Source of the DNA: a virus
Lineage: Duplodnaviria; Caudoviricetes
Length of the DNA stretch: 64,000 bases
Virus record (IMG/VR): IMGVR_UViG_3300033463_000010
Location: 1-64,000 of that record
Direction: 5' to 3' (one strand)
Positions 3,675 to 56,960 of the stretch are shown here, in pieces (position 1 is the first letter of the stretch; each line of letters opens with the position of its first letter). The position numbers were made by a program, and so were the translations under genes. The notes beneath the pieces are model-generated. The model ran no database searches. It was not told where the DNA came from and was given only the letters and a program-made list of their open reading frames with translations.

Positions 3675-3703
3675 TTGACCGATTGCAGATAATTTGTTAG
3701 ATT
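3675..3703 (+). promoter_or_regulatory. Sigma70-type promoter for a probable leaderless gene
   Basis: TTGACC-17 nt-TAGATT; ATG 3710 follows 6 nt later. Confidence 0.6.
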
Positions 3704-3709
3704 ATAGGT

Positions 3710-4151: not shown

Positions 4152-4188
4152 AATACCTATTGACAATCAATAGGTATTTTGTTATATT
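4152..4188 (+). promoter_or_regulatory. Promoter overlapped by a palindromic operator
   Basis: TTGACA(4160)-17-TATATT(4183); perfect 12-bp IR AATACCTATTGA/TCAATAGGTATT. Confidence 0.8.
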
Positions 4189-4211
4189 GTAGGTGTAAAC
4201 AACCACGAGGT

Positions 4212-4775: not shown

Positions 4776-4812
4776 AATACCTATTGACAGATGATAGGTA
4801 TTTTGTTATATT
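4776..4812 (+). promoter_or_regulatory. Near-duplicate of the 4152 promoter/operator
   Basis: TTGACA(4784)-17-TATATT(4807); IR AATACCTAT/ATAGGTATT. Confidence 0.8.
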
Positions 4813-4857
4813 ATCGGTGTAAAGGAAAGACAACCACTTCAACCGAGGATAGCACCA

Positions 4858-5709
4858 ATGGAACTCAAAAGGACCTACATTAGAACCGACAGGAACGGCA
4901 CGAAGTATTATGACGTGACATTCCAATGTGATTGGTGCAGTGGCAGGGGCATTCGCCCACAATATATGCACGTCCACGGGGGCGTATGCTTCTACTGCGA
5001 CGGAACGGGTGTTCATAACCGTCAAGTCAAGGAATACACGGCAGAATACGCAGCCAAGTTGGAAGCCAAACACGCTGCGAAGCAGGCTGCTTTCGCTGCG
5101 AAGCAGGAAGCCGAACGTCAAGCCTGGAACCCGCTTGATGCCGTAAAAAAGCAGGGCTTTGGCGAAGTTATGGGCATTGTCGTGGACGCAAAGACGGGCA
5201 AGCCCGTGGAACGCCACGAAAAGGGCAGCAGTTGGCTCTATTTCACGGCAAAGTGCAAGAACATTTGGGACCTGTATTTCACGGACCTGGATAACCCCGT
5301 TATCGCAGAAGACAAGAACTTCCAGGTCGTGCCGATGCCCTGGAACGAAGTGTTCGTCCCGAACTACACCGCTATGGCGTTGCAGTATAACGAAAATATC
5401 TTGCAGACGTTCCTGGACAACCACTACTACGGCTACCCGCAGTGCCCCAAGAGCAACGCTATCGGCACGGTTGGCGAACGTGTGAGCCTTGACGTGACCC
5501 TCAAGGAAATCAAGTCCTGCGACACGTTCTACGGCATCAAATACTACTACACGTTCCAGGACCGCAACTTCAACCTGCTCCGTTGGGACACAAGCAAGGA
5601 CCTGGAAATGGAAGTCGGGACCGCTGTGAAACTGACGGGGACCATCACGAAGCACGAATCCGACTGCTACGGCTCTTACACCTACGTCAACCGCTGCAAG
5701 ATTGCATAA
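4858..5709 (+). CDS. Zn-finger plus C-terminal OB-fold-like protein
   Basis: CDWCSGRG..CFYCDGTG (DnaJ-type Zn motif); C-terminal IGTVGERVSLDVTL..VKLTGTI; RBS aaccgagga. Confidence 0.7.
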   Translation: MELKRTYIRTDRNGTKYYDVTFQCDWCSGRGIRPQYMHVHGGVCFYCDGTGVHNRQVKEYTAEYAAKLEAKHAAKQAAFAAKQEAERQAWNPLDAVKKQGFGEVMGIVVDAKTGKPVERHEKGSSWLYFTAKCKNIWDLYFTDLDNPVIAEDKNFQVVPMPWNEVFVPNYTAMALQYNENILQTFLDNHYYGYPQCPKSNAIGTVGERVSLDVTLKEIKSCDTFYGIKYYYTFQDRNFNLLRWDTSKDLEMEVGTAVKLTGTITKHESDCYGSYTYVNRCKIA

Positions 5710-5723
5710 CCGAGGATAACACT

Positions 5724-20821: not shown

Positions 20822-20850
20822 TTGACAACCATTTGGTAATTAGTTATATT
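20822..20850 (+). promoter_or_regulatory. Phage promoter
   Basis: TTGACA-17-TATATT with GGTAATT in the spacer. Confidence 0.75.
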
Positions 20851-20891
20851 TAGTGTGTCTAGTGAATAGCCTCTTAACCGAGGATATAACA

Positions 20892-30480: not shown

Positions 30481-30519
30481 TCACAAAACCGCTGTGTGTC
30501 ACAGCAAAGGAAAACTAAA

Positions 30520-31098
30520 ATGGCTACTAAAAAGGCTGCTCCGAAAACTGAAACCAAAGTCGCACCGAAAGTAAAGGTGGTCGCCCCGAAGAAGGACGTG
30601 AAGTCTGCTCCGAAGAAAGACGTTAAGGCTGTCGCTCCGAAGAAGACCGCTCCGAAGATTATGGCGAAGTTGGTTCCCGCCAAGGCTGATGCTGCTCCGA
30701 AGCAGCAGGACCAGGGCTACGTTGTCCTGGAACACGACCTGCTTACGCAGAACTACACGATGATTATCCACGAAGCGGATTACAAGTTTAACGCTCCGCA
30801 CCACTTCAAGGTTATTGCTGCGAAGCCCGACACAGAGGGCGAACATAAGGGGCAGAACCGTGTAATCGCCATTGTTAATTTCCAGGAAGGACCGATTAAG
30901 GAAAATGGCGTGAATGGCGTTGCAAATGAAGATTTGCTCGGTATGGTCCTTGCCCGACTTGAAGGCTTCCAAAACAGCGAATACAAGTGCCGTGAAAACG
31001 CTTGTGCCATTACGAAGATTGAAGAAGCCCTTATGTGGCTCCGCAAGAGAACTAACGCCCGTGTGAAGCGTGGCGTGGAAGGCACTTCCAAGGTCTAA
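30520..31098 (+). CDS. tad1: Tad1-family anti-Thoeris nucleotide sponge with Lys/Ala/Pro-rich N-terminal extension
   Basis: NAPHHF..VNFQEGPIKENGVNGV.NEDL..RLE.FQ..CRENA.AITK.EEAL.WLRKRT..RGVEGT signature. Confidence 0.88.
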   Translation: MATKKAAPKTETKVAPKVKVVAPKKDVKSAPKKDVKAVAPKKTAPKIMAKLVPAKADAAPKQQDQGYVVLEHDLLTQNYTMIIHEADYKFNAPHHFKVIAAKPDTEGEHKGQNRVIAIVNFQEGPIKENGVNGVANEDLLGMVLARLEGFQNSEYKCRENACAITKIEEALMWLRKRTNARVKRGVEGTSKV

Positions 31099-31112
31099 CA
31101 GGGGGACGCACA

Positions 31113-31406
31113 ATGGCTAAAAAGAACGTGAAGAAACAGGCTCCGAAAAAGAGCCTTGCAGAAGTTATCGTTGACCTTGAACTTGAATTTGACGTAGTTG
31201 CAGGCAACGTAGAAAGACTTGACGCTGCCCTTAATCGTGGCGATAGTTTCGCCAAGGAAGTCGGGGACGAACAATACAATCTGCTTTGCCGTCAATTCAA
31301 TGCTATGGTTGAATATCGTGACACGTTGGGCATTCGCCTTGCCTTGCTCCGTCGTAAGAACGCAAAGGCTATTGAAGACGCTGCACTTGCAAAGGAGGGC
31401 AAGTAA
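31113..31406 (+). CDS. crAss001_48-like small helical protein
   Basis: LL.RQ..AM..Y...L..RL motif. Confidence 0.6.
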   Translation: MAKKNVKKQAPKKSLAEVIVDLELEFDVVAGNVERLDAALNRGDSFAKEVGDEQYNLLCRQFNAMVEYRDTLGIRLALLRRKNAKAIEDAALAKEGK

Positions 31407-31867
31407 TGGCAGATTCTACGCAAGATACCCTTGCACACCGCCAAATGGTCGTGGACTTCGCCACAGACTTCTGCACTGACATTATGGATAGGGCAGAATG
31501 CCACGACGAATCCAAACTTCACGAACCCGAAAAGGAACGCTTTGATTTTGTTGGGACCCATCAGCATTTGTCAAAGCACACCTATGGTTCCGACGAATAC
31601 AAGAAATCCCTGGAATACCTGGGACCTGCGTTGGAACACCACTACCAGGCTAACGACCACCATCCGCAGCATTTTGAAAACGGCATTGACGGAATGAACC
31701 TTATGCAGTTAGTAGAAATGTGGTTGGATTGGCTCGCAGCCTGCAAGCGAAACAAGGGTGGCAATATCCGACAATCGCTTGAAGTGAACAAGGACCGCTT
31801 CGGGTTGTCCGACCAACTGTATCACATTCTGTGCAACACAGCAGATGCTATTGAACAAAAGGGCTAA
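31406..31867 (+). CDS. HD-superfamily protein (DUF5662-like)
   Basis: H..HDESK..HHY..N.HHPQH..MWLDW. Confidence 0.75.
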   Translation: MADSTQDTLAHRQMVVDFATDFCTDIMDRAECHDESKLHEPEKERFDFVGTHQHLSKHTYGSDEYKKSLEYLGPALEHHYQANDHHPQHFENGIDGMNLMQLVEMWLDWLAACKRNKGGNIRQSLEVNKDRFGLSDQLYHILCNTADAIEQKG

Positions 31868-32000
31868 CTATGGCAAAAAGCAAAGAATCCATTTGCAACA
31901 CCTGTAATTCCAAGACTTATTGTGCAAACAGGGCTTTGGGTGTGACGGATTGTATCAATTACAATAAGTTCCCCAAGCCGTCCGCAGACGAAGCAAAACG

Positions 32001-32291
32001 ATGAATGCTTACGCTAACAAACTGCTTGCAAGAGCCGAGGGTATTTGGCACAATCTAGGGCTGTCGCTCAATGGGAAGAACTCCCAGGAACACGACGGCT
32101 ATACGTCCCTTGAATTGATTTTCCAGGATATTACCCCCGCCCAGGCTGAAATGCTTGTATCACAAATGAGCAAGGCTTTTAGGCGGGCGAATATCTATTG
32201 GAAATCAGCAGAAATCGGGAAGAAGATTTGCGTTGAAATCCCGCCTATGGGTTCGGGGACCCCCGTTCCTATGAAACGCAGTTGCAGGTAG
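32001..32291 (+). CDS. Hypothetical protein
   Basis: 96-aa ORF in an operon. Confidence 0.5.
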   Translation: MNAYANKLLARAEGIWHNLGLSLNGKNSQEHDGYTSLELIFQDITPAQAEMLVSQMSKAFRRANIYWKSAEIGKKICVEIPPMGSGTPVPMKRSCR

Positions 32292-32312
32292 TAACCACTT
32301 TGTTTATATTTT

Positions 32313-32448
32313 GGGAGCAGGACGGTTTGTAGCCATTCCGTCCTGTTACTTCCATAAGGGTGGAATAGCCCTACGTCGCTACTTTGGTAGCAGGCTCATT
32401 GGCGTGGGGCGGGGCAGCGTAGTTCTCGGTTTTCTACGCTGCCTTTTT
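32313..32448 (+). ncRNA. Putative small structured RNA
   Basis: TATATT at 32305; three stem-loops; ends in a terminator ggcagcgtag..ctacgctgcc-ttttt. Confidence 0.6.
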
Positions 32449-32449
32449 C

Positions 32450-32478
32450 TTGACAGCCACCAGGTAATTTGTTATATT
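32450..32478 (+). promoter_or_regulatory. Phage promoter
   Basis: TTGACA-17-TATATT with GGTAATTTGT. Confidence 0.75.
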
Positions 32479-32504
32479 TAAGGGACCTAAACAAGAGGTT
32501 CAAA

Positions 32505-33203
32505 ATGCCCATTACGATTATCAGTGTTACCGAAAACCCGCTCCAACTCATAGGTGAGTCCGCAGGTATTTGTTGGAATGCACCCGTTGACGACCCGCAG
32601 AAGAATATCCTTCGTGCGATTTCCTGCATTGAAGCGGACCACGGGCGTGTCCTGGAATATCCCGATATTACGATTGTGATTGACGGTAAGTCTGCCCGTG
32701 CGTTCCGTGAACTCTATACGCACATTGGCGGTGGACCTACCCGCCTGCAATCGTCCACCCGATATGTTGACGAAAGCAACTTTAAGTATTATACGCCCCC
32801 GTCCTGCCAAAAGGACGGTGTGCGTGAAGTTTACGAAAAGGGTATGAAGCAGGTTGCGGAATTTTACGGGGAGCTTATTGAACTAGGTGTTCCCCGTGAA
32901 GACGCAGCTAACGCCCTGCCGTTGGGTATGGATTCAAAGGTGGTGTGGAAGATTAACCTGCGTTCCCTTGTGAACTTTATGAACAAGCGTCTTTGCAGCC
33001 GTGCCCTTTTGGAAATCCGTCAGTTCGCAAACGAACTTCGCACCCTGCTTATGAAGATTAACGTAGAATGGGAATGGATAGGCGAAAACCTTTTCGTGCC
33101 GTCTTGTGAACGCTACAAGTTCCTTAACAAGTCTATGTGCTTCTGCATTGAGAAGAAGGGTTGCGGTCGCCACAAGTATATCAAGGATTGCACTCTTGAC
33201 TGA
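32505..33203 (+). CDS. thyX: FAD-dependent thymidylate synthase
   Basis: HGRVLE, REL.TH..QSSTRYV, REDAANALP, INLRSL..RLC.RA..EIR. Confidence 0.9.
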   Translation: MPITIISVTENPLQLIGESAGICWNAPVDDPQKNILRAISCIEADHGRVLEYPDITIVIDGKSARAFRELYTHIGGGPTRLQSSTRYVDESNFKYYTPPSCQKDGVREVYEKGMKQVAEFYGELIELGVPREDAANALPLGMDSKVVWKINLRSLVNFMNKRLCSRALLEIRQFANELRTLLMKINVEWEWIGENLFVPSCERYKFLNKSMCFCIEKKGCGRHKYIKDCTLD

Positions 33204-33537
33204 AAAGATTGATTGGAAAGAAGTTCGGTCCCGTATCTTGGAAACTCCCGTGGTGGTTCCACCGAAGAAGCCGTCACGCAAGGTGGACTCCGAAAAGTCC
33301 AGGGAAAAGGGGAAGCGGTTCTATGACGCTCATAAGGACGACCCCGTTTTCAAGGAAAAGAAGTCCGTAAGCAATAAGGCTTATAAGGACGCACACAAGG
33401 ACGACCCCGAATACAAGGCGAATAAGTCCGAATATAACAAATTATACAAGTTGGCTCATAAGGACGACCCTGTTTTCAAGGCGAAAAGAGCCGAGGCGTG
33501 TAGGCGTTATAGGGCAAAAAAGCGTCTTGCAGCCTAA
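33196..33537 (+). CDS. Basic protein with three AHKDDP repeats (start uncertain)
   Basis: Repeated AHKDDP(V/E)(F/Y)K. Confidence 0.55.
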   Translation: MTEKIDWKEVRSRILETPVVVPPKKPSRKVDSEKSREKGKRFYDAHKDDPVFKEKKSVSNKAYKDAHKDDPEYKANKSEYNKLYKLAHKDDPVFKAKRAEACRRYRAKKRLAA

Positions 33538-33547
33538 TCAGCGATTT

Positions 33548-33574
33548 ACCCCGATACCACGTATCGGGGTTTTT
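33548..33574 (+). terminator. Intrinsic terminator
   Basis: accccgatac-cac-gtatcggggt-tttt. Confidence 0.8.
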
Positions 33575-33609
33575 AATTATATTTAGGTTGAATAAGAGGA
33601 TATTGACTT

Positions 33610-34038
33610 ATGGCAAAGAGAATACCCGCAAAACAAGTAGTCCGTGCAGGGACAGAATCCGATTTGCGTGAGAAACTTATTGACCGTGAATTGGGCTTCT
33701 GTGATACGGAAAAATCCCTGTATATTATGCGTGACGGTATTTTGCACCCCCTGTCTAGGGTATTCACTGCGGTTTACGGTGTAACTACCCGTGTGCAAAT
33801 ACAGGAAGCTATAGACGCAGGGGCTTTGGTAGTTTTGCGAGGGTTGAGCATCTACGGTAACACTGTGGATGTTTATATGGTGCTATCGTCTGTGCAAAAA
33901 TCTACTTCGGGGTATGATACTTACACGTTTGGTTCCTCATTGGATATTCAAGGGGATAATGCTGTGTTTTATTGGGCTAAACTGACAGGCTCTAGTTGGT
34001 CTAACGGAGCTAGGACTGTGACGGGTAGTTCTGTATAA
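33610..34038 (+). CDS. Virion-associated protein with Mtd-N-like motif
   Basis: RELGFCDTEKSLYI. Confidence 0.45.
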   Translation: MAKRIPAKQVVRAGTESDLREKLIDRELGFCDTEKSLYIMRDGILHPLSRVFTAVYGVTTRVQIQEAIDAGALVVLRGLSIYGNTVDVYMVLSSVQKSTSGYDTYTFGSSLDIQGDNAVFYWAKLTGSSWSNGARTVTGSSV

Positions 34039-34052
34039 GTTGAGGTAGGACT

Positions 34053-34826
34053 ATGCGTATAACGAAAGTAAATCAAAGAATTTCACGACTTGACGAACAG
34101 TTGAGCAAACTGCTCTATTTGAAAGAACACCCGAAGCGTCGTCTTCACGAATCCTTGTCCGATTGGGCAGACCGTGAAGTGCAAATTGCCTGTAAGGGTG
34201 CGGACGGCTATGGTGCAGGCTGCTATCAGTCGGCATTGAAAGCGTTCCGTTCTCTTATGGACGACGGGCATAGTGGATTTTCTATCGGCTGCACGAAAGC
34301 AATCTTGAACAGATTGATTGACGGCAAGCCCCTTACGCCTATCAATGACGTGGACGACGAATGGAATAGTGAATCCGATTTTTATGGGGAAGATGGGCAT
34401 TATCAGCACAAACGTGCGTCGTCTGTATTTAAGACGGTGAACCCCGACGGCTCCGTGGAATATAGCGACGTTGACAGAACCGTGTTGGTTGAAGTTGCCG
34501 ACGACGGCACAGAAACAACGTGGCATAGCGGGTTAGCGTCCAAACTTGTAAATGAAATTGTAGGACCGATAACGTTCCCGTATTACCCTAGTGCTAAACC
34601 CTACAAGGTTTATGCCCACCAATTTGATTCTGTGAATGCAGAAGTAGGTTGTTTTGATACGTCGCATATCTTGAAAATCGTGGACCCCGACGGAAACGAA
34701 ATTGATTGTGAACGTTTCTATGTTGAAAGTGGGGACAGGGGCTTCCAGGAAGTAGGACGTGAAGAATACGCTGCACGTGTTTTGTCATACAGAAATGCCC
34801 TCAAATCCCGTGTAGCAAATAAATAA
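34053..34826 (+). CDS. Conserved phage protein with basic N-terminal leader
   Basis: GHSGFS..RLIDGKPLTPI..DEW..YQHKR.S.VFK; leader ends RRLHES. Confidence 0.65.
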   Translation: MRITKVNQRISRLDEQLSKLLYLKEHPKRRLHESLSDWADREVQIACKGADGYGAGCYQSALKAFRSLMDDGHSGFSIGCTKAILNRLIDGKPLTPINDVDDEWNSESDFYGEDGHYQHKRASSVFKTVNPDGSVEYSDVDRTVLVEVADDGTETTWHSGLASKLVNEIVGPITFPYYPSAKPYKVYAHQFDSVNAEVGCFDTSHILKIVDPDGNEIDCERFYVESGDRGFQEVGREEYAARVLSYRNALKSRVANK

Positions 34827-36049: not shown

Positions 36050-36382
36050 ATGGAATTGCTGTTTCAATTAACGTCCATCGGCTTGTCTGTGTGCCTGCTT
36101 CTATCCTGTGTGTATATGGTGAAGCAGGTCCGCAAGGCTATGGAGCAGTTCCAAAAGTTTGAGAAGTTGTTTAGGGCTTTGCGGGAAGCGAATACAAAGG
36201 CTCGCTTTATGGCAACGTCCGTAAAAGACAAGGTGACGTTCCTGGAAACTACCTTACAGGACTTGCAATCCCAAATAGATATTCTCTTACATACACCGAA
36301 TAACCCGCCTAAAACCGAGGTAAACAATGGCAACAACGACGTTAGTTCTTCTAATTCTGTTGATTCTGTCGGTAATCACTAA
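36050..36382 (+). CDS. Membrane-anchored coiled-coil protein (possible spanin)
   Basis: N-terminal TM plus coiled coil in the lysis cluster. Confidence 0.45.
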   Translation: MELLFQLTSIGLSVCLLLSCVYMVKQVRKAMEQFQKFEKLFRALREANTKARFMATSVKDKVTFLETTLQDLQSQIDILLHTPNNPPKTEVNNGNNDVSSSNSVDSVGNH

Positions 36383-36530: not shown

Positions 36531-36885
36531 AGCCTTAATCAGCAAGCGTCGTTCCCGCCTGCAGGCTGCACAGAATAAGTCTGTGCAGAAGAAAGTGGAA
36601 CAGCCGAAAGTTGAAGCCCCCAAGGTAGAACAGCCCAAGGTTGAAGAAGTCGCTGAAACCCCGACTGCTCCGATTGTTGAAGAAGTCGCTGAAACCCCGA
36701 CCGCTCCGATTGTTGAAGAAGTCGCTGAAACCCCGACCGCTCCGATTGTTGAAGAAGTCGCTGAAACCCCGACCGCAGAACCGCAGGACGAAGCACCGAC
36801 CGCAGAAGAACCTGTTGAGGTCGTGGAAGCCGAAGTCAAGCCGAAGCGTCGCAACCGCAAGAATCGTGAGGTTGAAAATGGCTAA
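36499..36885 (+). CDS. Acidic repeat protein
   Basis: (I)VEEVAETPTAP repeats. Confidence 0.65.
   Translation: MNKNKKLSALEALISKRRSRLQAAQNKSVQKKVEQPKVEAPKVEQPKVEEVAETPTAPIVEEVAETPTAPIVEEVAETPTAPIVEEVAETPTAEPQDEAPTAEEPVEVVEAEVKPKRRNRKNREVENG
36640..36776 (+). repeat. 36-bp tandem repeat, about 3.8 copies
   Basis: gttgaagaagtcgctgaaaccccgac(t/c)gctccgatt. Confidence 0.95.
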
Positions 36886-43709: not shown

Positions 43710-46691
43710 ATGAACGATTTCATTGATACAAGTTACAAGCGTTCCTACATTGTAGTGTCTGCGTCCGCAGACGGTGTTGTTCTGCGTCCTGTTGAAGACG
43801 AAACCTTGCTGTCCTATTGGCGTGAATTTTTGTCGGGTTACATTACTGACCCGCTGCCCGAAGACGTGACACCGATAATCACGCTCACGCAGTTGCCTAT
43901 TGAAGTTTTGAAAGTTGACGCTTATGTGGATTACGTCGTGGAATATCCCCGTGTGTCCGTGTCTTATGGCAGCTATTCCGTTGACGTATCGGATAGGGTT
44001 TCGGTGAATCACCCGAACCCCGAAACGCCTGGGTTGTATGCCCTGGACTTCACGATTTCAGTGAGTGGCGAAAAGACTACACCGATTTGGCGTTCCTGGG
44101 TTTCTATTGAGGAACCTCCGCTGCTCCGACATATTGTGACCCCGTGGAACCGCTCTAACAAGGCTCTTGCGGACTTGAACCGTCTTGTCATTGAGCCACA
44201 GTTTAACGAGGCTCTTTACGAAGCAGGTGTGCCCATTTACAACTTCCAACAGGCTAACGCTCCCGCAGCGGTCAGTCAGTTTGCTGCGTTGAAGTATAAG
44301 GATGCCCGTGCTATCGTGATTGACAACCGCCTGTTTATTTCGGGTCCACGTCTGCCTGTTGGAACCGAAGTGACCGTGAACGGTATGACCCGTATGTTGG
44401 GTGTTACACTTGTTTGCCCGCAGTTCTCTAACCAGGACGTTTACACAAAGGGCGACGTGGTTAGCTACTGTGGTTCGGACTACTACGCACTTGACGACGT
44501 TCCGACAAGAAAATACCCCGACCCGAACGACGAAACGAAGACTATAACGGGTAGCGTCTTGCCGACGGCTACTTTTTCCGAAGATGGGGTGGACCGCACG
44601 TATTGGCTGCGGGGTTGCTATTATTCCGTTGCTCCGATGTATTTGCCCGACGGTGAGTATGAACTAACGTCGCTTTGGGCGGTCCTGGACGTGAGCGGGT
44701 ATATGTTCAAAATGGACCTGCTCCGTGCGTTCCCCGTCCGTCACTATTGGGGTCATTACGACAGAAAGTATTTCCTGGATTACGCAGCGGGCGACCTGGT
44801 GTCGGTTGTTGACGACAACGTAATTACGCTCTATCAGCGTAACGAAACGTCCATAGCCGAAGACGGTATTGAAGAAGCCTACCGCCCTGGTCACTATTTG
44901 AACCCGCATTGGACGGAAGTGTATTCTGCGTCCAATAATTCTATGCTGCGGGACCCGATTATCAAGCCTTACACTAATTCCACGAATGCGGTAATTAGTA
45001 AGACGTGCCCCGCCCGTGAAGAAGCATTCCGTATTTATGCGAAGTTGGTTGACATTCCGTTCGCACTTGTGGACGCATTGGGTTCAAAATACAGCGTCCT
45101 GTTATGGGCGTTGCTTTACAGGACCCGTGAAACGTTCCCAGGCATTAAGGCTGCGATGAACGCTATCGGTATGGAATTATCCAACCTGCGTAGGGCTAGT
45201 CCGTCCGTTGTCTATTCGCAGTATAGCGAGGGCGGTATTCAGTCCGAAATCAAGGACGTTTATACCGAAATCGGAAAAGTCAAGGAAATCGCAAAGTCCG
45301 TAAAGGCTGACAAGGTTTGGACCGAGGGGCGTTCCTTGCTGTATAAGGACGACCCCGACGTTGACGTTCCGTGGATTAGGTATTCGCAGGAAGGCGAAGA
45401 CCCCGACACCGTTTGGATTTACAAGCGTAACAGCGGAACGTCGGACGCAGGTAGTTGGGAAAAGTTCTATTCGTTTGTCCATATCGGTAGCGATAGGGAT
45501 ATTTCGGAATATGACTACTCCGTGAACAACCGCTATTACAGGGCAGACGCAAGCCTGTTGGACCGTTTGGCAGAAGACGGTGTTATTGATATGGGCGACG
45601 GCTTGCAGTGGATTGACGACGACACCTTTGTGGGCTTGTCGCTCGCACTCACTACGCTGCTTTCCTACGAAATCCCGATTTACATTTATTTCCGTTTGAA
45701 GGTCCGTCTTGCGACCGTCGGTCACACCCGTCTGCGTGGGATTTCAAAGCCTGTGTTCTTGCAGGATTCCTGGGGCGGTCCTATCGGTCTTAAACTGTTC
45801 CCTGGCAAGTATTTTGATTTTGTAACTATGGAAGTCGTAGAATGCTATCCGACTGTGTTCTATGTCTATGCGGACGACCCCGAAGACAAGCCGTCAAGTG
45901 ATAGCCCCGACACGGATTGGACGAAGTGCGTTGAGTTCGTGGATATGGGCACCTACCGTTATTACCCGTTTGACAGGGCTGTTTACTTGCGTATAAAATA
46001 TACGGGTGACAACGCTTCGCTTATTTACAGGGTAGCCCGTGGCATTGACTACGACGATAGAGAAGAGGGCGTAACCCGTTTCAAGTGGTGTTGGACTTCC
46101 CGTTACACAATCGGCTGTCTAGGCAACTCCGAATCGCCAGGAACAGACGATTACAAGGTTCGTCCAGGCGACCACGGTTTTGACGGCTTTGAAGACGCTA
46201 CTCAAATGAACCCGACGGACAACGACCGCCACGGCTCCGATATTTACTTGTGCAAGGGTATCGCTGCAATTACGCTGCGTATCGCTACGGACAACTTGAA
46301 AGTTACCGCAGAAGCTATGCAGTGGCAGTATATTTTCAATGACCCCGAATGGACTATGGGTGATACGGAGGACGCTTTGCGGTTTGCGGGTTGGCACCCA
46401 CTTGACGGTGTGAAAATGATAGGCTGTTGGGTTGGTGACGTTGCGTCCTTTAAGAGTATGATTTACAGGGTTACGTCACCCGAAGTAAGCAATTTGGAAT
46501 GTCAGTGGGACACCGACGAACCTACCTTAAAAGTCCGTGGTGGCATTCCACGCTTCCTGTATCTGTGGGACCGCCAGGGGTTCATTAGGGGTATGCTTAT
46601 CGTCCCGTTCACGGACCGTTTGGTTGACAAGATAGACAATCCAGGCGAGGACGATTGGCAGTTCAAGTTTACGTTTGATGTAAGTGAATAG
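43710..46691 (+). CDS. Large baseplate-associated protein
   Basis: ~994 aa; Y.KGDVV.Y carbohydrate-binding-like repeats. Confidence 0.55.
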   Translation: MNDFIDTSYKRSYIVVSASADGVVLRPVEDETLLSYWREFLSGYITDPLPEDVTPIITLTQLPIEVLKVDAYVDYVVEYPRVSVSYGSYSVDVSDRVSVNHPNPETPGLYALDFTISVSGEKTTPIWRSWVSIEEPPLLRHIVTPWNRSNKALADLNRLVIEPQFNEALYEAGVPIYNFQQANAPAAVSQFAALKYKDARAIVIDNRLFISGPRLPVGTEVTVNGMTRMLGVTLVCPQFSNQDVYTKGDVVSYCGSDYYALDDVPTRKYPDPNDETKTITGSVLPTATFSEDGVDRTYWLRGCYYSVAPMYLPDGEYELTSLWAVLDVSGYMFKMDLLRAFPVRHYWGHYDRKYFLDYAAGDLVSVVDDNVITLYQRNETSIAEDGIEEAYRPGHYLNPHWTEVYSASNNSMLRDPIIKPYTNSTNAVISKTCPAREEAFRIYAKLVDIPFALVDALGSKYSVLLWALLYRTRETFPGIKAAMNAIGMELSNLRRASPSVVYSQYSEGGIQSEIKDVYTEIGKVKEIAKSVKADKVWTEGRSLLYKDDPDVDVPWIRYSQEGEDPDTVWIYKRNSGTSDAGSWEKFYSFVHIGSDRDISEYDYSVNNRYYRADASLLDRLAEDGVIDMGDGLQWIDDDTFVGLSLALTTLLSYEIPIYIYFRLKVRLATVGHTRLRGISKPVFLQDSWGGPIGLKLFPGKYFDFVTMEVVECYPTVFYVYADDPEDKPSSDSPDTDWTKCVEFVDMGTYRYYPFDRAVYLRIKYTGDNASLIYRVARGIDYDDREEGVTRFKWCWTSRYTIGCLGNSESPGTDDYKVRPGDHGFDGFEDATQMNPTDNDRHGSDIYLCKGIAAITLRIATDNLKVTAEAMQWQYIFNDPEWTMGDTEDALRFAGWHPLDGVKMIGCWVGDVASFKSMIYRVTSPEVSNLECQWDTDEPTLKVRGGIPRFLYLWDRQGFIRGMLIVPFTDRLVDKIDNPGEDDWQFKFTFDVSE

Positions 46692-52906: not shown

Positions 52907-52935
52907 TTGACAATAGGCAGGTAATTTGTTATATT
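52907..52935 (+). promoter_or_regulatory. Phage promoter
   Basis: TTGACA-17-TATATT with GGTAATTTGT. Confidence 0.8.
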
Positions 52936-52979
52936 TATATCGTAAAGAGAAAACAATCACTTCAACCGAGGACAGCCCT

Positions 52980-56933: not shown

Positions 56934-56960
56934 ACTAAAACCAACCGAGGCAAAAACACT

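Follow-up and report, generated by a model that had tools for sequence, protein, structure and literature searches.

The first 64 kb of a 213,231-bp Caudoviricetes phage genome (IMG/VR virus record IMGVR_UViG_3300033463_000010, completeness estimate 97%), a stretch of 64,000 nucleotides referred to here as the window, contains a predicted small RNA (sRNA) whose terminator loop is complementary to a recurring ribosome-binding site (RBS) of the same phage. On the best reading the RNA is ~135 nt long, lies roughly at 32314-32448 on the + strand and consists of four hairpins, the last of which is its own intrinsic terminator. Comparison of homologous sequences indicates that it is a real, previously undescribed family of conserved, structured RNAs. 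The terminator loop complements AACCGAGGA, an extended Shine-Dalgarno (SD) sequence common to about 35 phage genes, and we consider the chances about evenly balanced that the RNA acts in trans by pairing this loop with the leader and RBS shared by that gene class.

Folding of the + strand between 32305 and 32455 gave a minimum free energy of -68.9 kcal/mol, against a mean of -45.3 kcal/mol for shuffled sequences (z = -6.46). A previous reading of the interval from its sequence only (the sequence-only reading) had described a TATATT box (32305-32310) followed by three stem-loops, with loop 1 at 32326-32337, a GCTCATT motif at 32394-32400 and a terminator loop at 32423-32433. These coordinates and sequences were all correct, but the fold has four hairpins rather than three. 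The GCTCATT motif, said to be exposed by stem 2, is present; the stem is that of hairpin 3, and the motif lies in its 3' bulge. The elements of the predicted RNA are:

32282-32287, + strand: weak -35 candidate TTGCAG, with a 17-nt spacer to the -10-like box; not conserved

32305..32310, + strand: -10-like box TATATT(TTG), found as TATATT or TACATT upstream of stem 1 in every homolog

32316..32347, + strand: hairpin 1, stem 32316-32325 / 32338-32347, with the 12-nt loop UUUGUAGCCAUU (DNA TTTGTAGCCATT) at 32326-32337

32350..32365, + strand: hairpin 2, a short hairpin of the fold, UUCCAU-AAGG-GUGGAA

32368..32410, + strand: hairpin 3, a long hairpin with outer stem 32368-32377 / 32401-32410 and inner stem 32378-32382 / 32387-32391

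32392-32400, + strand: 3' bulge of hairpin 3, AGGCUCAUU, which includes the invariant CAUUG

32411-32422 / 32434-32445, + strand: stem of the intrinsic terminator, with the 11-nt loop UUCUCGGUUUU (DNA TTCTCGGTTTT) at 32423-32433 and a U tract to 32449

The whole window matched no family of Rfam 15 at the gathering threshold, and a search of related loci was likewise negative. With E values of up to 10 allowed, the segment 32100-32700 gave a single match, a chance resemblance to a mammalian long non-coding RNA (10.9 bits against a gathering score of 70). An identity as tRNA, transfer-messenger RNA (tmRNA) or tRNA-like element was rejected, as ARAGORN found no such genes in the window and the fold is one of four consecutive hairpins.

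The product of the 96-amino-acid gene that precedes the RNA was used as bait for a homolog search, which yielded 22 related proteins and ~30 loci in IMG/VR, ENA, Logan and JGI assemblies; at most of these loci an RNA homolog follows directly after the 96-amino-acid gene. Judged from sample names, many of the loci seem to be rumen or gut metagenomic, and the phage and its RNA-bearing clade (~213-216 kb) are probably of rumen origin. BLAST searches of GenBank phages, both near and distant, returned zero matches, and therefore no annotated relative. A covariance model was built from 15 sequences, and the alignment made with it holds 16 homologs in about 8 distinct variants. The model finds exactly one copy of the RNA in the phage studied (G000) and in each of two related complete genomes, G001 (215,310 bp) and G002 (215,686 bp). 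A pattern search of IMG/VR with the two invariant motifs described below gave 21 matches, of which four were real by covariance-model search and the rest due to chance.

The covariation that the sequence-only reading had put forward as a check was found: among the 16 homologs the stems covary and the loops are conserved. Standard pairs make up 90.3% of the paired cells in the model alignment, compared with 40-53% when the partners are slid by 1-3 columns, and compensatory changes, with both sides altered, occur in 30 of 43 base pairs; none of 500 shuffles reached the observed values. Because the alignment was fitted to the model's own structure these figures are somewhat inflated; an independent RNAalifold analysis of a plain MAFFT alignment showed compensatory changes in 19 of 27 pairs. 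In the model alignment the compensatory changes are spread over hairpin 1 (7 of 10 pairs), hairpin 2 (4 of 6), the outer stem of hairpin 3 (8 of 10, with 98% of cells paired) and the terminator stem (7 of 12). Several sequences have G-U pairs at many positions, which marks the + strand as the transcribed one. A small protein gene was considered and rejected, since no reading frame is conserved among the homologs: the open frame shifts from one to the next, and L016, L017, L018 and L007 carry stops in all three frames.

Three unpaired segments are conserved, and no part of the RNA varies less than loop 1 and the bulge. Loop 1 reads (U/C)UUGUAGCCAUU, the UUGUAGCCAUU portion being identical in 12 of the 15 rows that hold the loop and changed by a single C to U in one more; L006 and L007 differ. 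Within the bulge motif GCUCAUUG, the positions C85 A86 T87 T88 G89 (CAUUG) are invariant in 15 of 15 sequences, and CAUUG is the sole motif kept in every homolog, L006 and L007 included. The terminator loop has the consensus UC(C)UCGGUU, with CUCGGUU kept in 15 of 16 homologs over different, covarying stems; it is UCCUCGGUU in most homologs and UUCUCGGUU in this phage. In L006, the copy of G001, loop 1 and the terminator loop both differ, and loop 1 differs in L007 and L008.

For the comparison with ribosome-binding sites, 372 genes were called in the 213-kb genome by a simple heuristic of open reading frame (ORF) plus SD sequence, and are therefore approximate; 371 initiation regions were compared with 342 internal windows as controls. 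In the window AACCGAGG occurs 7 times where 1.9 are expected, and in the whole genome there are 40 copies of AACCGAG and 37 of AACCGAGG. All but two of the latter (35 of 37) precede an ORF of at least 40 codons, at 3-12 nt from its start, and 22 of these lie directly behind the phage promoter. Within 30 nt upstream of starts no 8-mers are commoner than ACCGAGGA and AACCGAGG (25 of 371 each, against 0.85 expected), and around the sites runs a shared leader, TTGACA-N17-TATATT...(G)TAAAGRAAAGACAACCACTTYAACCGAGGATAGCnnAATG. Exact 8-mer matches to the consensus terminator loop are present in 26 of the 371 initiation regions but in none of the 342 internal windows, a result equalled by 1 of 1000 shuffled loops. 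Likewise, duplexes of -11 kcal/mol or better with the window's own loop were predicted for 26 initiation regions and for no internal window. The loop is fully accessible, with an opening energy of 0.01 kcal/mol, and the chance that a random 11-nt loop would hold the complement of either top 8-mer is, as a rough figure, ~1e-4 (4 positions x 2 words / 65,536). The match of the terminator loop to the recurring RBS, noted from the sequence for six genes, is thus clearly above chance and extends to about 35. The predicted target sites before those six genes are:

4841..4849, + strand: AACCGAGGA RBS in the conserved leader of gene 4858; promoter at 4784-4817; repeat families D1, D2 and D13

5708..5716, + strand: AACCGAGGA RBS of gene 5724

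20876..20884, + strand: AACCGAGGA RBS of gene 20892; promoter at 20822-20855

36313..36320, + strand: AAAACCGAGG RBS of gene 36327

52964..52972, + strand: AACCGAGGA RBS of gene 52980; promoter at 52907-52940

56943..56950, + strand: AACCGAGG RBS of gene 56961

Co-folding of the whole sRNA with RNAcofold gave no difference in binding energy between the 371 initiation regions and 171 internal windows. This was rejected as a test because such a calculation cannot handle the pairing of a hairpin loop with another strand, and it was replaced by loop-only duplex energies and opening energies.

The relation between loop and leader was also followed across the three complete genomes. AACCGAGG is present 37 times in G000 and 34 times in G002, both of which have the CUCGGUU loop. 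In G001 the terminator loop reads UCAUCC and there are 11 copies, 7 of them at ribosome-binding sites. The pattern fits the pairing model, in a sample that is very small at three genomes. Loop 1 of L007 and L008 has become UUGGUUGUUG. Its complement, ACAACCAA, belongs to a leader motif of G001, GACAACCAACC; the comparison uses the leaders of G001 and not those of the L007 phage itself.

A second terminator with a loop antisense to the leader was found at ~205,575 on the minus strand (~205,530-205,610, locus L066), between two minus-strand genes, and has a homolog in G001 at ~189,328. Its large loop holds AUCCUCGGUCGUGGUUGUCU, which is antisense over 20 nt to the leader AGACAACCACGACCGAGGAU. 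The two elements are alike in that a hairpin loop is antisense to the same leader and RBS. The second, at an operon end, comprises one hairpin and has ~20 nt of antisense, whereas the four-hairpin RNA has its own -10 box, 9-11 nt of antisense only and two extra invariant loops.

These results are consistent with a mechanism in which the exposed terminator loop (UCCUCGGUU in most relatives, UUCUCGGUU here) would pair with AACCGAGGA. Most of the genes with this motif come first behind a sigma-70-like TTGACA-N17-TATATT promoter and have the common leader ...GACAACCACUUYAACCGAGGAUAGC..AUG; this promoter-proximal class is presumably early, to judge from its sigma-70-like consensus promoter. Since pairing would cover the SD, the RNA should block or modulate 30S binding, and it would do so on the whole class of ~35 genes at once, most simply by repression of initiation. 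It may act together with the second anti-leader terminator loop elsewhere in the genome. We infer that the RNA is produced, that it pairs with its targets in vivo and that the effect is repression rather than activation or stabilisation. A trans-acting translational regulator, as the sequence-only reading had it, is still the best reading, and what supports it is the terminator loop, conserved over a covarying stem, accessible and complementary to AACCGAGGA on about 35 genes. The grounds taken from loop 1 and the bulge did not hold up.

Loop 1 had been read as antisense to a set of start codons, and GCTCATT as an anti-AATGAG seed. The complementary sites exist, at the gene starts that had been listed, and AATGGCTA, like AACCGAGG, is over-represented in the window (13 copies, 2.2 expected). 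The loop 1 complement AAUGGCUA, found in 9 of 371, ranks among the most frequent 8-mers that span a start codon. ATGGCT is the commonest combination of start and second codon (20 of 371) and Met-Ala-Lys/Thr a frequent N-terminus, which accounts for how common AATGGCTA and AAUGGCUA are. Enrichment of the match to the commonest start context (AUGGCUA) is marginal. Exact 8-mers of loop 1 hit 9 initiation regions and 2 controls, a result equalled by 15 of 1000 shuffled loops. Loop 1 duplexes of -11 kcal/mol or better were no more typical of initiation regions (12 of 371) than of internal windows (15 of 342). A longer match, AATGGCTAC, occurs at two real gene starts only, those of the Tad1-like gene at 30520 and of a 211-amino-acid gene at 202,722 on the minus strand. 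The latter carries both AAAAACCGAGGAAA, its RBS, and AAUGGCUAC; it tops both rankings and is the best dual-site target. Its product matched nothing in Pfam or PHROG, and no ortholog is present in G001 or G002, so it is not a conserved target. The altered loop 1 of G001 (UUCGAGUCAUU) has no matching start sites in G001. For the bulge, the complement CAATGAGC is found at no gene start, and there were 0 exact 8-mers at initiation regions and no enrichment. A general role for loop 1 and the GCUCAUU bulge as anti-start-codon seeds is accordingly unsupported, with enrichment that is marginal for the loop and absent for the bulge.

A further reading was considered, in which a three-point clamp on initiation would form, with the terminator loop on AACCGAGGA and either of the two invariant loops that contain CAUU(G) on the (C)AAUG start 6-8 nt downstream. 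The order of the two elements in the RNA, bulge and then terminator loop, fits antiparallel pairing with an mRNA in which the SD precedes the AUG. CAAUG looked more frequent among the starts of the leader class, as judged by eye only and among paralogous leaders, and serves as a lead. We regard the clamp as rather unlikely. If true, the clamp and the sister loop at ~205.5 kb would amount to an all-RNA silencing of a class of early messages, an RNA counterpart of T4 RegB and RegA.

Several observations weigh against regulation in trans through the terminator loop. The window's own loop is one C short, so that a G-U pair is needed to reach 9 bp with AACCGAGGA and the match is perfect only to AACCGAG. 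C/U-rich loops complement SD sequences to some degree in general, and shuffled loops reached up to 27 matches. The leaders are paralogous cassettes, and the ~35 sites are therefore not independent observations. In G001 the RNA is without the loop, yet (A)CCGAGGA still serves as an RBS, its 5' flank being more variable; the coupling of loop and RBS is therefore not obligatory. The RNA is absent from L009, L068 and L070 and interrupted by insertions in L018, L012, L024 and L069, which makes it dispensable. A single sRNA would need to titrate about 35 mRNAs. The near-invariant UUGUAGCCAUU and GCUCAUUG, the most conserved loops, are left unexplained by pairing with the RBS. Finally, given the weak, non-conserved -35, part or all of the RNA may be made as the 3' end of the upstream operon.

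A stand-alone sRNA of about 135 nt is favoured by the arrangement of the locus. The -10-like box is 6 nt from stem 1 in the window and up to about 13 nt in other homologs, and the sequence further upstream, including the end of the 96-amino-acid gene, differs between homologs. The terminator and U tract are conserved. The putative promoter of the RNA was missed by the promoter scan because its -35 matches at 3 of 6 positions only. While the upstream 96-amino-acid gene is constant the downstream gene changes, being thyX with its own promoter (window, L013-15), a DUF7487 gene (L010, L016) or a gene whose product begins 'MADEIDW...' (L006, L007, L019, L022). In L021 and L026 a TnpB element is inserted between the 96-amino-acid gene and the RNA and the RNA is intact, which fits a separate transcription unit. 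No promoter separates the U tract from the next gene, ~20 nt on, in L006, L007, L019 and L057, where transcription must therefore read through to some extent.

An alternative account holds that the RNA works mainly through UUGUAGCCAUU in loop 1 and GCUCAUUG in the bulge, which would bind something else: a protein of phage or host, a host RNA, or a component of host defence for which the RNA serves as decoy. The RBS match would then be secondary or incidental. We think this unlikely, and give it substantial weight all the same because RBS pairing leaves the two most conserved loops unaccounted for. These loops have hardly any preference, or none, for initiation regions, and CAUUG is the only motif present in every homolog, L006 and L007 among them. 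The neighbouring genes, in conserved order, are Acb2/Tad1-like, Sequestin (PF21825), DUF5662 and Tad3-like; a defence-related role is conceivable from the position of the RNA in this counter-defence block, but a gene neighbourhood is by itself weak evidence. Nor does the 96-amino-acid protein that travels with the RNA have a recognisable RNA-binding fold, and the RNA itself has no Rfam, tRNA or tmRNA similarity. What this account leaves unexplained is that CUCGGUU is kept over covarying stems and equals the complement of the top RBS 8-mer.

Two further accounts place the RNA in cis. It could be the structured 3' end of the upstream operon, from the Tad1-like gene through the 96-amino-acid gene, with a leaky terminator that shields the mRNA from 3' exonucleases and sets the read-through into the next gene. 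The constant position after the 96-amino-acid gene, the weak and non-conserved -35 and the promoterless genes that need read-through in L006, L007, L019 and L057 agree with this. A protective structure, however, needs stems and not invariant loop sequences of 8-12 nt; a -10-like box is conserved just upstream of stem 1, and the RNA stays intact where TnpB separates it from the 96-amino-acid gene (L021, L026), as expected of its own unit. We judge this account quite improbable. The other would make the RNA a cis-acting attenuator or riboswitch-like leader of the downstream gene, with the terminator as expression platform. Its appeal is the layout in L006, L007, L019 and L057, in which a promoter-like box, ~135 nt of structured RNA, an intrinsic terminator, an RBS and a gene follow one another. 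Against this, loci differ in the downstream gene (thyX, DUF7487, the 'MADEIDW' gene), and a separate promoter for it is often present, the window included; inspection of the aligned homologs by eye revealed no conserved antiterminator alternative, the 5-bp CGUAG/CUACG pairing possible in the window being absent from L022; and no Rfam riboswitch was matched. This makes an attenuator highly improbable.

Most known cases of regulation by phage-encoded sRNAs involve a single RNA and a single gene next to it. In the c4 RNA of phages P1 and P7 and the sar RNA of P22, both small, exposed loops base-pair at the ribosome-binding region of a phage mRNA and so prevent its translation. Each acts on one neighbouring transcript (ant or icd-ant), c4 being processed from the same transcript and sar being cis-antisense, whereas the targets proposed here are dozens of unlinked genes that share a leader. 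In T4 class-wide control is exerted by proteins: RegB cuts GGAG in early SD sequences and RegA represses translation initiation. These are possible functional analogues, in that early mRNAs are shut down class-wide; here the recognising agent would be an RNA loop.

Among bacterial RNAs, RepG of Helicobacter pylori is a stand-alone sRNA that uses the C/U-rich loop of its terminator as the seed to a G-rich element in a 5' untranslated region and so controls translation (PMC8295292). RepG is bacterial, acts on one operon and meets a variable G-repeat; the phage RNA is phage-encoded, would recognise an extended SD of 9 fixed nucleotides, shared by about 35 genes of the same phage, and has two further conserved loops, and the two have no sequence or Rfam relationship. 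LhrC1-5 of Listeria monocytogenes, and with them the UCCC-loop sRNAs RNAIII, RsaE and SprD of Staphylococcus aureus, bind SD sequences and block initiation through several exposed C/U-rich sites, the terminator loop included (PMC4132741). LhrC carries three redundant copies of one motif (CUCCC...UUUU) and targets host envelope genes, while in the phage RNA each of the three conserved sites has a sequence of its own, and the RBS is matched by the terminator loop only. With RNAs of the RepG and LhrC type the phage RNA shares an accessible loop complementary to SD sequences and a seed conserved over a covarying stem; of the marks of an independent transcript, the -10-like box and terminator are conserved and the -35 is weak. 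It is set apart by being phage-encoded, by the private RBS on dozens of unlinked genes, by the sister element and by the two extra invariant loops.

A limited search of the open-access literature turned up no account of a phage sRNA directed against an early leader common to several genes. In this phage a single conserved RNA bears the complement of a private ribosome-binding 'address' on about 35 unlinked genes. If the pairing proposed for the terminator loop is true, control of a temporal class in large phages would be achievable by RNA-RNA pairing and not only by proteins like RegA and RegB, and the keeping of the extended SD (AACC + GAGGA) would be explained. The usual pairing with the anti-SD of 16S rRNA presumably does not account for that extension. 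The two other invariant loops may point to a further partner beyond the RBS class.

The RNA lies in the gap between the 96-amino-acid ORF (32001-32291) and thyX (32505-33203), and a counter-defence-like gene block, 30496-34826, surrounds it. The order Tad1, Sequestin, DUF5662, a 44-amino-acid gene, the 96-amino-acid gene and the RNA is kept in relatives. The neighbouring features are:

30496-31098: Acb2/Tad1-hairpin-like gene (26.8 bits against a cutoff of 27)

31113-31406: Sequestin/crAss001_48-like gene (PF21825)

31406-31867: DUF5662 gene

32001..32291, + strand: 96-amino-acid gene, function not assigned; precedes the RNA at every homologous locus and was the bait of the homolog search

32450..32478, + strand: thyX promoter TTGACA-N17-TATATT, 11 of 12 matches with a TG extension; repeat family D1

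32505-33203, + strand: thyX (Pfam Thy1, E = 2.7e-37)

34053-34826: Tad3-like gene (PF25185)

The 96-amino-acid protein was without a match in either Pfam or PHROG. Its AlphaFold2 model is confident (predicted local distance difference test score 82) and has an (alpha-beta-beta)x2 fold, and a Foldseek comparison with the PDB was uninformative, its top matches being designed proteins and PilO/EpsM-like domains with E > 0.001. The idea that this neighbour is an RNA chaperone was rejected, as neither the model nor the Foldseek matches present a recognisable RNA-binding fold.

The thyX promoter is separate from the RNA and defines its 3' boundary. Compared with L006, L019, L057 and L068, thyX and its promoter (32450-33203) look like a cassette set between the RNA and the 'MADEIDW...' gene; in relatives it is missing, or DUF7487 and thyX stand in its place. 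The promoter belongs to a phage-wide family, TTGACA-N11-TTTGTTATATT, with copies at 3675-3708, 4160-4193, 4784-4817, 20822-20855, 32450-32483 and 52907-52940 and many further ones genome-wide; a conserved leader of ~35 nt (GTAAAGRAAAGACAACCACTTYAACCGAGGATAGC) follows at least 22 of these promoters. A second class of genes uses AAAGGAA-type ribosome-binding sites instead. AACCGAG also occurs outside an RBS context, in a small hairpin, GCUCGGCUUCAAAACCGAGAAUGCC, common to contig C1 of G000 (~66,790-66,815, minus strand) and to G001 (~44,700-44,760).

Mobile DNA is found at the RNA locus of several relatives (L018:1760-2290; L012:960-1055; L024:1815-3235; L069 from 1401; L021:1795-2994; L026:1305-2507). 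An insert of ~215 nt splits hairpin 2 in L018, and a different one interrupts the same point in L012. An insert of ~1.4 kb, with a 405-amino-acid ORF of no known family, breaks loop 1 after UUUGUA in two lineages (L024, L069). An IS605-type TnpB gene adjoins the RNA at three loci in three arrangements: in L026 it is upstream and shares the RNA's strand, whereas in L021 (upstream) and L018 (downstream) it is on the opposite strand. The RNA was also considered as a TnpB omega-RNA or the end of an IS200-IS605 element, which was rejected because tnpB is absent at most RNA loci and has no fixed orientation.

Elsewhere in the window, in-frame repeats were observed in two places. The ORF at 33106-33537 contains three in-frame tandem units of 63 nt (AHKDDPxFKxKK...) at 33325-33513, and ORFs around 36640-36776 carry in-frame 36-nt repeat units, present as three overlapping 65-nt copies at a spacing of 36 nt.

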